Source: Atribacterota bacterium (GTDB taxonomy: Bacteria; Atribacterota; Phoenicimicrobiia; Phoenicimicrobiales; Stramentimicrobiaceae). Taken from it: DNA of 53,411 bases. The stretch lies in the NCBI GenBank assembly GCA_028703475.1, contig JAQVMU010000003.1:1-53411 (forward strand), written 5' to 3'. The position numbers and the translations under genes were made by a program. Position 1 is the first letter of the stretch, and each line of letters starts with the position of its first letter. The notes under the pieces were generated by a model. That model was not told the DNA's origin. It did not search any database and was given only the letters and a program-made list of their open reading frames with translations. Below are positions 2,970 to 6,056 of the stretch, one piece after another.

Positions 2970-5900
2970 TTAAAAAGAAATTCCTGTTTGAAAATAAAAT
3001 CGAAATGCAGAATCGCCAGTAAGGGATTTTCCTGCTCCAATTGTCAGGGTAAGAGGTGTTCCCCGGGCTTGTTTAAATTTAAAATGCAACTCTGCACCGG
3101 CAGAAGCATGGATATTTTGATCAAATGGAATAAAATTTCCTTCCCATGAATTTCCGGCATCTAAAAATAGTGTGCCGGAGATTCTATCTAAAAAGACAGA
3201 TGCCCAGTCAAATCCGATTTTTTTCTCGACTGACTTGATAGGGAAACGATATTCTGCACTAAAGGATAATAAGTTGTTCCCGCTAAATGCATTTGAGGGG
3301 AATCCCCGCAAGGGAAAGCTTCCTCTGTTAACTGAGCTGGGAGAAGTATTGTTAGCATTCCCGCCTAAATAGAAAAGCTCTTCTTTATTTAATTCTCCTG
3401 TTGCTGTACCGGCAACCAATCTTAATGCCAGTACCTGATTTTTACCTGAAAGGGGTAAATAATTTCTTCCATCAAATAATACTTTATGGAATGTATCATC
3501 ACTCCCGATGAGATGATTTGCATGCTGATAACTTAAAGACAATGAATAGCCGGTTTCCGGGCTAATAGAGGACTGGTAAGTTTCTGTATCATTATAGTTA
3601 TAGCTAAAGATGATAGAATTAATATTCTTGTAAACATTATTGTTATCATTATCGTCACCTGAATTTATACTGTATAAATCATTTTGAAATGCAAAAGAGA
3701 TATTTTTATTGTAAAAGCGGCCATAATCCTGTTGTGAAGTATAGCCCTCCCGGTGAAAAGTTGTTTTTGCCTGAAATCTTGAAGTAGTTGATTCAGGGTC
3801 AAGGAAATTATTCAATCGATTATCTTCAAGCAAGGTTTCTCCCTGCCATGATAATGAATAAATGGGATTGTTATTGGCATAATCGATAAGACTGATATCA
3901 TAGTAGACCGCTGGACTCATAAGACCTTTGGCTATGGTAAATGGCAAATTATAGAATTGCAGATAATCCTGGGCTATGCTTGAAAAACCCAGGTATAGGT
4001 CATTCCGGGTTAAGGTAAGATAGGGAGTCCAGTAGGTTGGCAGGATGCTGTCCCATGGGGAATAGGGTTTAGTTATATTTTGATACAGGGGACGGTTCTC
4101 TGTATCACGGTTTTCGCCCTGCAGTGTCTGATACAGAGAACCGTCCCCTGTATCAGTATGGTCAACCGGTTCCCAGAGCAGGTCTTCAGTTTTGGAAAGA
4201 TGCAGTTCATAACCTGTGGGATGGTATTGTATGAAAGCCATATAATTATTGCAGGGAGATACTGCCGGCTCGAAAGCACCTGTTAGTACATTGGTCATTC
4301 TAAACAGTTCTTTATCTTCTATACTATAAGCATACAGGTTATATATTCCGGTCCTGTCTGAAGAAAAGTACAGGTGTTTTCCGTCTGCTGACCAGCTGGG
4401 GCTTATATCGGTATAATTATCAATGGCAATGGCATAGGAAGACTCTATCTGGTTATCTTTGTCTAATGCTAAAATATAAATATCCTGGTAACCGTTTTGC
4501 CATAAAGAAAGGGCAATATGGCTTCCGTCCGGTGACCAGACCGGATGCGATATCTGTGTGCCATCTTTAAAGTCGGTGAGGTAGATTAAATCAGAAAAAG
4601 ATAATAAATCCCCCTCTTTATAATTATCAACAGGTATTGCAGTAGAACCAGTATTTAGATTTTTCATAAGGTCCTGGCTAACAGAGAAAAGAACAAGATT
4701 ATTGGTTCCTGCATTATTGATAACCGCCACAACCTGGTTCCTGGATTTATCCGGATTCCAGCTTGGGTCTTTAATTCTCATTCCGTCTGATATTTTTAAC
4801 TGCCTGCCTGTTTGCAGGCTGTATAGAAAAATATCGCTGTATTGATAATATTGTTCATATTGAGACAGTCTTGTATAAAGAAGAAATGAATTATCTGGAG
4901 ACAGGCTATATGAAAACCCATGTCCGTTAACACGATTAATAATAATGTTTTCTTCTTTGCTATTTAGTGAATAACTGCGAATAGTTGGGTATAATTCTAA
5001 ATTGTTTACTCTGTATAAAATAGAGGTAGAATTATTCCCAGTATTTGTTAGCCATATTGGATTATCAACCCAGTATTTGTGGTTTGTGATTTGGTCAGAA
5101 GCGGTAAGAGAACTATTTTGATATACTTCTTCAGCCTGTTTTTGATAATGGCTGAACTGTTCTTCCTGCCACTCCTGGTAAAGCTGTTCCTGGTCAATAT
5201 TAAGGGTTTTTTTAATTGCCCAGTTCATACCCAGAAGAGGATATGCGCAAAAATATTCACTAATTTTAATTAAGTTTTCTTCACCAAACTTAGCAGCGAT
5301 ATAATGTACCAATGATTGACCGTAAACATAAGGTGCGGTACCTGCTGGCCAGGAAGTTAGGTAGGAACTTTGAAGCAGTTTAAGGTCAATAGGCTCACTT
5401 TTTAAAAAATCTGAACGGAGGTACATATCATACCTGGTATCCTGTAATCGGCCACCACTGCTGTTCTGGCTTTCATAATAAATTGCCATACCTTCGGTTG
5501 CCCACATGGGCTGCAAGGCATTTGGTGCAATAATTTGTCCTAAAAAAAAGCGAAGAAAGGAAGTTGTCTTAGCGGTCATTTCAAAATGTGCCAGATGAGT
5601 ATATTCATGGGTTATTACTATCTTAAGCCAATTTTCAAATTTCGTATCAAAGCTTTTAAAATTGGGAGCAGTCAGGTTTATCCTTATTAACCGATGCGGT
5701 AAGACAGTAGCAAATCCATAGACAGAATCGCTAAAGTCTTCAAGTATAATTGCTATTTTCCGGTTTTTATGAAAAGGTTCACCAAAATTGGGAGTTATTT
5801 GCTCATAAGTCGCTTCGGCTATTTCCAGGACATTAGATGCTGTATTACTGTAGTCGAAATAATATTGGTTGAGTGGGCTTTCACCTGGGAAAATAACTAA

Positions 5901-6056
5901 AAAATGTGTACTTTCGGTAACCTGCCAATTCAGAGAAGGGTCATAAGTTTTTGATTGAACACAGGTGCTAAAAAGAAAAATTTGTATTAATATTAGTGTT
6001 ATCAATATCAATGGATTGGATTTAATTAAAAAAATATTCTCTTTTAATTTAATCAT
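2970..6056 (-). CDS. Omp85/BamA-barrel outer-membrane protein with N-terminal gluzincin-like metallopeptidase domain and PD40/TolB beta-propeller
   Basis: Signal peptide. HEYTH (aa 150-154) plus WATEG. PD40-like repeats (SLSPDNS, DPSWNP, HPVWSPDG, SPSWSADG, EPAVSP). Omp85 barrel motifs (FYLGG, FPLRGF, SAEYRFP, LFLDAGNSW). C-terminal Phe (FQTGISF). Confidence 0.8.
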   Translation of the reverse strand: MIKLKENIFLIKSNPLILITLILIQIFLFSTCVQSKTYDPSLNWQVTESTHFLVIFPGESPLNQYYFDYSNTASNVLEIAEATYEQITPNFGEPFHKNRKIAIILEDFSDSVYGFATVLPHRLIRINLTAPNFKSFDTKFENWLKIVITHEYTHLAHFEMTAKTTSFLRFFLGQIIAPNALQPMWATEGMAIYYESQNSSGGRLQDTRYDMYLRSDFLKSEPIDLKLLQSSYLTSWPAGTAPYVYGQSLVHYIAAKFGEENLIKISEYFCAYPLLGMNWAIKKTLNIDQEQLYQEWQEEQFSHYQKQAEEVYQNSSLTASDQITNHKYWVDNPIWLTNTGNNSTSILYRVNNLELYPTIRSYSLNSKEENIIINRVNGHGFSYSLSPDNSFLLYTRLSQYEQYYQYSDIFLYSLQTGRQLKISDGMRIKDPSWNPDKSRNQVVAVINNAGTNNLVLFSVSQDLMKNLNTGSTAIPVDNYKEGDLLSFSDLIYLTDFKDGTQISHPVWSPDGSHIALSLWQNGYQDIYILALDKDNQIESSYAIAIDNYTDISPSWSADGKHLYFSSDRTGIYNLYAYSIEDKELFRMTNVLTGAFEPAVSPCNNYMAFIQYHPTGYELHLSKTEDLLWEPVDHTDTGDGSLYQTLQGENRDTENRPLYQNITKPYSPWDSILPTYWTPYLTLTRNDLYLGFSSIAQDYLQFYNLPFTIAKGLMSPAVYYDISLIDYANNNPIYSLSWQGETLLEDNRLNNFLDPESTTSRFQAKTTFHREGYTSQQDYGRFYNKNISFAFQNDLYSINSGDDNDNNNVYKNINSIIFSYNYNDTETYQSSISPETGYSLSLSYQHANHLIGSDDTFHKVLFDGRNYLPLSGKNQVLALRLVAGTATGELNKEELFYLGGNANNTSPSSVNRGSFPLRGFPSNAFSGNNLLSFSAEYRFPIKSVEKKIGFDWASVFLDRISGTLFLDAGNSWEGNFIPFDQNIHASAGAELHFKFKQARGTPLTLTIGAGKSLTGDSAFRFYFQTGISF
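4081..4155. repeat. Perfect 27-bp inverted repeat pair with 21-bp spacer (REPIN-like doublet) inside the Omp85 gene
   Basis: TGATACAGGGGACGGTTCTCTGTATCA (4081-4107) is the exact reverse complement of 4129-4155. Each arm is itself an imperfect palindrome (TGATACAG...CTGTATCA). Confidence 0.95.

Follow-up and report, generated by a model that had tools for sequence, protein, structure and literature searches.

The subject of this study is a 75-nt palindrome within a protein-coding gene of an Atribacterota bacterium (contig JAQVMU010000003.1 of assembly GCA_028703475.1, positions 1 to 53,411; this whole stretch of 53,411 nt is referred to below as the window). A repeat search of the window retrieved two arms of 27 nt each, 100% complementary and with 21 nt between them, just as described in an earlier note made from the sequence alone, and shuffles of the window gave zero matches to the palindrome. 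The arms are labelled below as repetitive extragenic palindromic (REP) sequences. The element is in frame, extending from the third base of codon 634 to codon 659 of the host gene and encoding HTDTGDGSLYQTLQGENRDTENRPLYQN / TDTGDGSLYQTLQGENRDTENRPLYQ.

2970..6056, minus strand: host gene, 1028 amino acids (aa); signal peptide, HEYTH metallopeptidase-like region, TolB-like PD40 propeller, linker, Omp85 barrel
4081..4107: REP arm 1, TGATACAGGGGACGGTTCTCTGTATCA as read on the plus strand of the window, from the inverted-repeat search
4085-4103: conserved 19-nt core of arm 1, ACAGGGGACGGTTCTCTGT
4108..4128: spacer of 21 nt, the loop of the long hairpin, species-specific
4129..4155: REP arm 2, perfect reverse complement of arm 1 (core 4133-4151)

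The host protein has 689 homologues, Atribacterota proteins annotated as TolB-like or BamA/TamA-like. Pfam detected PD40 and no POTRA domains in it, and its C-terminal 364 aa match PF01103 (Omp85) with E=5e-15. An AlphaFold2 model (mean predicted local distance difference test score, pLDDT, 63) has a fold matching TolB propellers and BamA barrels. In this model residues 633-665 are coil with pLDDT<50 and no secondary structure; this stretch follows the last propeller strand (615-622) and precedes the first barrel strand (672 onward). The element is thus predicted to encode a disordered inter-domain linker. The earlier placement of the palindrome in a tolerant linker between the propeller and the barrel of an Omp85 protein is borne out by the open reading frame (ORF), the PF01103 match and the model, with its predicted disorder at 633-665. 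The HEYTH metallopeptidase-like N-terminal region was modelled poorly (pLDDT about 30 at residues 110-250), and the host gene is the sole minus-strand gene of at least 150 aa in the window.

As single-stranded DNA, one arm folds alone at -5.7 and -5.3 kcal/mol for the two strands, which differ in their irregularities; each arm is therefore itself an imperfect hairpin, as the note had it. Folding of a 135-nt mRNA segment containing the element gave -62.8 kcal/mol (z = -7.8). The element had also been called GC-richer than its flanks, which is partly true: 75-nt windows covering it reach 0.49-0.53, yet positions 4000-4074 and 4150-4224 come close with 0.48-0.49. The sequence 3' of the hairpin reads AAATATAAC on the sense strand and GTATGGTCA on the other, with no T-run after the hairpin on either strand in the window, and an intrinsic terminator was rejected for this hairpin for want of a U-run. 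Rfam returned only sub-threshold matches to miRNA precursors in the window, of the sort that any long hairpin attracts.

Some library artefacts do yield perfect palindromes, and a chimeric hairpin or adapter introduced during sequencing or assembly was considered as an explanation. The palindrome was, however, crossed with zero differences by contigs from four independent DNA (metagenome) runs, the exact host protein is present in three separate Logan assemblies, the reading frame is maintained through the element, and orthologues from other studies have the element with different spacers. We therefore give the artefact explanation practically no weight. The window organism was detected in at least 20 runs of 13 studies (landfill, digester, sludge), and its spacer, when searched among all fetched loci, was found only in contigs of the same species (L159-L161).

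Age and origin of the insertion

In an alignment of orthologues whose proteins are 50-67% identical, the same linker carries the peptides TGDGSL[YF], TENRPLY, KQRTVPC, NREPSPV and GTVLCI, all of them translations, in different frames, of one nucleotide arm or its reverse complement. In the DNA, the core ACAGGGGACGGTTCTCTGT and its complement form an inverted pair with zero mismatches in four orthologue loci (L001, L002, L003 and L005) and with 1-2 mismatches in L004 and L017. The pair is confined to the linker in these six loci, with none elsewhere in up to 20 kb of flanks. L133 and L162 hold two further perfect inverted pairs. The element leaves the ORF uninterrupted in the window as in all orthologues. 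Both 19-nt cores (38 nt) are identical to those of the window in 5 of 7 orthologues (P about 1e-7 per species), in genes whose DNA identity to the window is 64-69% among the orthologues compared and whose third-position identity at identical residues is about 0.5, amounting to synonymous saturation. The element has thus been conserved at the nucleotide level.

A maximum-likelihood tree of 60 orthologues placed the REP-bearing proteins in a single clade of 15 (Shimodaira-Hasegawa-like approximate likelihood ratio support, SH-aLRT, 95). The element occurs in the same linker in 15/15 clade members and in 0/45 orthologues outside, the single apparent exception (P0013) holding decayed arms, and the alignment position of the proximal arm is constant throughout. 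Neither the clade nor the species-level variants read showed an empty site, and all of these variants keep the insert, one of them with a single G-to-S change within an arm. As judged from alignment and tree, the insertion is old and has a single clade-wide origin, in the common ancestor of this Atribacterota clade; its age follows from the fact that a whole clade of related species keeps the element.

These data bear on the proposal of the earlier note that zero mismatches reflect either recent insertion or selection on the hairpin. Perfectly complementary arms are indeed what a recent single insertion of a mobile palindrome in the window species would leave. Yet orthologues with a protein identity to the window of only 58-66% have this element at the same position, and all species-level variants and metagenomes of many studies carry it without exception; the orthologue comparison refutes a recent insertion. 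Preservation of the hairpin, the other proposal, fits genes that are saturated and arms that are unchanged. In the comparison that had been suggested, whether the roughly 25 aa are absent from orthologues, the element was present in all clade members and absent in the 45 proteins outside the clade.

Each orthologue has a spacer of its own length and sequence. Measured from one shared anchor motif to the other, the linker mostly has 174-216 nt in REP-bearing orthologues (237 nt in L163) as against 240-261 nt in sister-clade orthologues without REPs. Since the REP-bearing linkers are the shorter ones, the ancestral linker was replaced and not merely extended, contrary to the earlier view that the element simply added new protein sequence.

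Alternatively, the linker could be a hotspot for recurrent independent insertions, with each lineage carrying its own recent REPs and the arms consequently matching the family consensus. Such a history would account for the differences among orthologues in copy number and arrangement (+-, +--, ++-), in spacers and in the frame of the distal arm, and for the partial arm remnants in L003. The shared frame is weak evidence for a single origin, because independent in-frame copies in other genes also use the TGDGSL frame. Against recurrence stand the restriction of the element to all members of one clade, the lack of an empty site in clade or species, the constant alignment position of the proximal arm and the arms of L163, which share derived substitutions as expected from evolution in place. 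REP copies are otherwise absent across more than 130 kb around the host-gene orthologues. Recurrent insertion therefore seems unlikely to us, and one old insertion is the history that we retain.

Several minor observations concern these linkers. At L003:11899-11956, two partial repeats of the 3' half of the distal arm (TCCCCTGTATCA, ACCGTCCCCTGT) follow the complete distal arm, all of them translated; they look like remnants of slippage or partial deletion. A REP-like sequence with 4 mismatches (ACAGGGGACGGCAGACTGT, L005:1085-1103) lies about 200 nt upstream of the orthologue start and may be a decayed extragenic copy. Orthologues without REPs (L006-L012, L014, L018) have in common a linker motif P-x-I-x-[ND]-N-x-V-x-F. 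A homologous PVIRDNVLCF is found between the two REP arms at L162:11924-12031, where the DNA cGGGACaatGTTCTCTGT equals the REP at 13/19 positions, including an exact 9-mer. This stretch is possibly what remains of a third REP, decayed and read in the QGTVLC frame, unless the likeness is coincidental; the sister-clade motif may likewise descend from an older, decayed REP in that frame.

The REP family and its RAYT transposases

The following form of the motif serves for scanning assemblies.

REP motif for scanning: ACARGGGACGGTTCYYTGT

Scans of public collections with the 19-mer core, which accepted exact matches only, retrieved 5 viral and at least 120 metagenomic stretches. Because of this setting the invariance of the 19-mer among the matches holds by construction, while the breadth of hosts does not. 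Among the matches listed, to which the counts of this and the next paragraph refer, contigs with the 19-mer range in GC content from 0.28 to 0.66, and only L133 is orthologous to the host gene. The core is flanked in 114 copies by 3-5 complementary, covarying bases (ggag/ctcc, taag/ctta, gat/atc, aac/gtt), frequently followed by a T-run, as in many extragenic copies. The REP is thus a hairpin whose apical part is conserved and whose outer stem varies freely.

Close pairs of REPs show a strict polarity, '+ then -' in 38 cases and '- then +' in 0, and the same polarity is found around genes for REP-associated tyrosine transposases (RAYTs). Exact copies fall within long ORFs in 23/170 cases (13.5%), compared with 58% of random positions on the same contigs, in agreement with the earlier statement that REP doublets forming hairpins (REPINs) are mostly intergenic. 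In-frame doublets were nevertheless found in three certain genes on unrelated contigs, coding for an AddB nuclease (KTGDGSLSCAEARQRTVPCL), an amidase (KTGDGSLSCSAENKTENRPLS) and an SDR epimerase (KTGDGSLSCGEHDSLTQKPGRVRQRTVPCL); none of the sense frames of the core contains a stop codon. On the viral loci no Rfam family covers the motif, the matches being miRNA-like sequences and tRNAs only. A full-text literature search for the motif, in a limited library, returned unrelated primers only and no paper describing the family by sequence.

The link between the motif and RAYTs comes from the gene context. In L052, L105 and L100, inverted exact 19-mers about 900 nt apart enclose an ORF of 250-285 aa that matches PF01797 (Y1_Tnp) and, at E~1e-21 and 75-77 bits, the NCBIfam model REP_Tyr_transpos (REP-associated tyrosine transposase), slightly short of its 80-bit cut-off. 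RAYT homologues detected by tblastn adjoin the motif in L063, L086, L108, L126, L089 and L098 as well, and overall inverted core copies surround PF01797 genes in at least 22 fetched loci. The RAYT of L100 is 90% identical to 'transposase [Candidatus Caldatribacteriota bacterium]', and the REP downstream of this Caldatribacteriota-type gene is letter-identical to the 27-mer of the window. The exact 19-mer flanks the RAYTs of both L052 and L100, although these are only 38% identical to each other. Among cultured Firmicutes, homologous RAYTs are flanked by close variants of the motif in Maledivibacter halophilus (ACAAGGGACGGTTCTTTGT, 8 copies in 20 kb) and in Sporomusa rhizae (CAGGGGACGGTTCC).

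Thirteen loci (L146-L158) carry a RAYT of the L100 type, and 12 of the 13 have a REP(+) about 96 nt upstream and a REP(-) about 10 nt downstream; L147, a short contig, has the downstream copy only. Where their flanks are long enough, these loci show a conserved AddA-RAYT-FakA context with a few further single REPs after neighbouring genes; neither AddA nor FakA was found in the window. Because inverted copies of the core flank PF01797 genes, we assign the arm to the REP of a widespread RAYT family, and the tie to RAYTs supposed by the earlier note is upheld. The evidence supports the reading of the arm as a genuine REP and of the doublet as having REPIN architecture, the architecture first proposed for it, with inverted copies in the same '+ then -' polarity as around RAYT genes.

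A number of other candidates were dropped because they conflicted with the gene context, with Rfam or with the PF01797 flanking: a recombinase inversion site, a CsrA/LexA-type binding site, a guanidine-II-like ACGR loop, group II intron domain V, a CRISPR repeat, a sequencing adapter and a gene-specific conserved RNA hairpin.

Other members of the family show further arrangements. In L045 (3447/3507, 7309/7369) and L046 (179/239, 1453/1513) whole doublets recur with 41-nt spacers, 3 of the 4 having the same spacer sequence, so that the doublet of this organism behaves as a true multi-copy REPIN unit. L021 and L025, which belong to one 88.7-kb IMG/VR contig (GC 0.54-0.55), hold several single REP-like hairpins on one strand, mostly between same-strand ORFs. 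One of these (L025:4167) stands directly upstream of a cluster of three tRNAs (4201-4428), and no RAYT was found in the fetched L021/L025 stretches. Comparison of run X2 with window positions 4085-4151, and of runs X2, X3 and X6 with the L100 joints at 1581/2486, retrieved other REP doublets with unrelated flanks and spacers, one of them on a 251-nt contig, where the spacer measures 61 nt and the flanks are GC-rich. The presence of such doublets in the same metagenomes indicates that other organisms of the community carry the same REP. In distant Atribacterota, a RAYT homologue lies directly upstream of the orthologous peptidase-propeller-Omp85 gene (L013:1358-2143 and L015:325-1116), with a different hairpin (AAAGGTGCCWGGCACCTTT) on both of its sides; this layout implies a second REP-RAYT pair in the phylum, adjoining the same gene.

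Arm identity and maintenance of the hairpin

In 8 of 10 folded loci the element forms a single long, essentially perfect stem of 24-31 bp. In L017 only the second '+' copy pairs with the '-' arm, with one mismatch, and one compensated change is seen. The bases just inside and outside the core are lineage-specific yet complementary. The arm of L163 (ATAGAATACGG) departs from the consensus at four positions, all four of which are mirrored in the opposite arm (a third copy has three of them); the conserved GGGG of the REP has become AATA, yet across the 19-nt core the outer arms have kept perfect complementarity. This leans towards pairing, rather than the REP motif, being what matters in L163.

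Arms thus evolve in concert within a locus. Concerted change is expected if the hairpin is the selected or copied unit; taken alone, it does not separate selection on RNA or DNA structure from neutral homogenisation by mismatch correction of an extruded hairpin, re-copying of an arm or RAYT-mediated turnover. The arms are nearly letter-perfect although spacer, copy number and distal-arm frame all drift, which places the constraint on the nucleic acid and not on the peptide.

We conclude that the palindrome is very probably a REPIN of a RAYT family found in Atribacterota, Firmicutes and uncultured organisms, inserted once in the ancestor of the clade, kept by vertical descent and constrained as nucleic acid. 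Two inverted copies of a REP hairpin, each consisting of the core and a short variable outer stem, would have formed this REPIN, which would have entered the inter-domain linker in the common ancestor of the Atribacterota clade and displaced part of the old linker. Thereafter it would have been inherited vertically and translated as a disordered linker peptide, with drift in spacer, copy number and distal-arm frame and with arms remaining almost letter-perfect and mutually complementary, the constraint presumably acting on the 24-31 bp hairpin in single-stranded DNA or mRNA. The TnpA protein of IS200/IS605 and TnpA-REP of E. coli act on hairpins in single-stranded DNA. By analogy, we infer that the element was mobilised by a RAYT acting on such hairpins, and that the likeness of the arms may result from hairpin-dependent correction or RAYT-linked turnover, possibly with added selection on the mRNA hairpin.

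Several observations weigh against this conclusion. The earlier note had advised looking for a nearby IS200-like RAYT gene, and none is present in the 53-kb window, which also holds no further copies of the arm, even at 3 mismatches. Searching four DNA runs that contain the window organism with the L100 RAYT (>=80%) gave no long match; what matched were short conserved stretches and, from other organisms, doublets without a RAYT. No conserved unpaired GTAG/CGTC tag exists at -6..-1 or +1..+6 in the 114 copies listed, where variable complementary stem bases are found instead; the CGTC of the present REP sits in the apical loop of the reverse strand. Conservation of the arms could in principle result from repeated re-insertion and not from one old copy. 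Finally, L004 has three uncompensated differences and a weak fold (-30.5 kcal/mol) with its ORF intact, and because this locus decays uncompensated the constraint is not universal.

A further explanation concerns only the maintenance of the hairpin and is compatible with its origin as a REPIN: the REPIN may have been exapted and retained because its 27-bp stem serves the gene. It might do so by making translation pause after the periplasmic domains and before the barrel, as an RNase III or exonuclease-barrier site setting the 5'/3' mRNA ratio, or as a protein-binding site at the DNA level. Arm conservation far above that of saturated synonymous sites and surroundings otherwise free of REPs speak for it, and the pairing kept in L163 despite the change of GGGG to AATA fits selection on pairing better than recognition by a RAYT. 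According to contigs from RNA runs, which are too sparse to reveal any processing there, the host gene is transcribed; contigs of two runs break exactly at the hairpin (4015/4129; 4055/4121), and in run X30 the 5' side of the gene has the greater depth. However, the hairpin is crossed by one contig of another RNA run, strong hairpins commonly break contigs for technical reasons, and there is no T-run after the hairpin on either strand. Mirrored changes also arise without selection, through mismatch correction of extruded hairpins or re-copying of arms, and L004 has lost its pairing while the ORF is still intact. We therefore regard exaptation as possible but doubtful. Its more specific form, in which the long hairpin is under selection as a cis-acting element of the coding sequence (for example a pause or an RNA-processing/stability site between the peptidase-propeller and barrel halves), appears slightly more doubtful. 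If true, a selfish repeat would have come to serve as protein linker and as regulatory structure at once, and would have outlasted species divergence.

Relation to known repeats

REPIN/REP-RAYT systems were reportedly described in Pseudomonas and Enterobacteria by Nunvar in 2010 and by Bertels and Rainey in 2011. Rickettsia palindromic elements (RPEs), in turn, are said to have been found by Ogata and colleagues in 2000 in frame within protein genes, translated and tolerated. The element described here resembles REPINs in having two inverted REP hairpins that form one long hairpin around a short spacer, and in belonging to repeats that are mostly extragenic, vertically inherited and long-lived, with arms that change in concert. 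As in REP-RAYT systems, the same REPs stand in inverted orientation around a Y1/HUH transposase gene, which in the L100 type looks single-copy and has a conserved chromosomal context. In contrast to classical REPs, the terminal GTAG tag is absent; the hosts are Atribacterota and Firmicutes and not Proteobacteria; and the RAYT of the present family is longer (250-285 aa, with a C-terminal extension). Unlike REPIN populations, the copies have a very low density around the host gene, and unlike typical REPINs, the window copy lies in coding sequence and is conserved across species sharing 58-66% of residues. A further reference for the systems of Pseudomonas and Enterobacteria is bioRxiv 10.1101/2021.07.10.451892.

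The palindrome is similar to RPEs in being a palindromic repeat in frame within a protein gene and translated as a tolerated extra segment. RPEs, however, are 100-150 bp long, belong to CGTC-tagged families of Rickettsia and have no associated transposase (PMC3733652), while our element measures 75 bp, is untagged, differs in sequence, has an Atribacterota host and is paired with a RAYT family. GTAG- and CGTC-tagged REP superfamilies consist of short stem-loops that form mainly head-to-head dimers (Di Nocera et al. 2013, PMC3733652). The present family shares both the short stem-loop and the predominance of head-to-head dimers, and differs in that its 114 listed copies show covarying stem bases only and no conserved unpaired tag. 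Intragenic REP units in known proteins have already been reported (PMC3733652). The hairpins also resemble the subterminal palindromes of IS200/IS605, being imperfect, with irregularities that are conserved (one strand has two G.T pairs, its complement two A.C mismatches), and flanking a Y1 transposase gene; unlike in IS200/IS605, both ends are the same hairpin, inverted, and the window doublet has no transposase between its arms.

An intragenic REP or REPIN that behaves much like an RPE is therefore a known kind of object, and what is unusual here is its long persistence at the nucleotide level across a deep clade. A datable orthologous REPIN within coding sequence is rare, and the surrounding gene serves as a built-in clock. 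With synonymous sites saturated and both 19-nt cores untouched, the locus offers a clean natural case for finding the cause of arm identity, the candidates being RAYT-linked turnover, hairpin-templated correction and a function at the level of the host. It also documents a REP-RAYT family outside Proteobacteria, with the apical motif GGGACGGTTC in Atribacterota, Clostridia, Negativicutes and many uncultured organisms. This family repeatedly supplies the peptides TGDGSL, TENRPL, QRTVPC and EPSPV to real proteins.

A last observation concerns two further ORFs that the palindrome creates.

4073..4279, minus strand, and 4080..4286, plus strand: shadow ORFs of 68 aa each, created by the palindrome, from the mechanical ORF list only

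The earlier note had taken this mirror-image pair for by-products. Both are present as mechanical ORFs, without evidence that they are genes, and both lie inside the conserved 1028-aa ORF with its 689 homologues. For annotation, the repeat-encoded peptides (TGDGSL and the others) and the paired shadow ORFs are a recognisable sign of the repeat and not of new genes.

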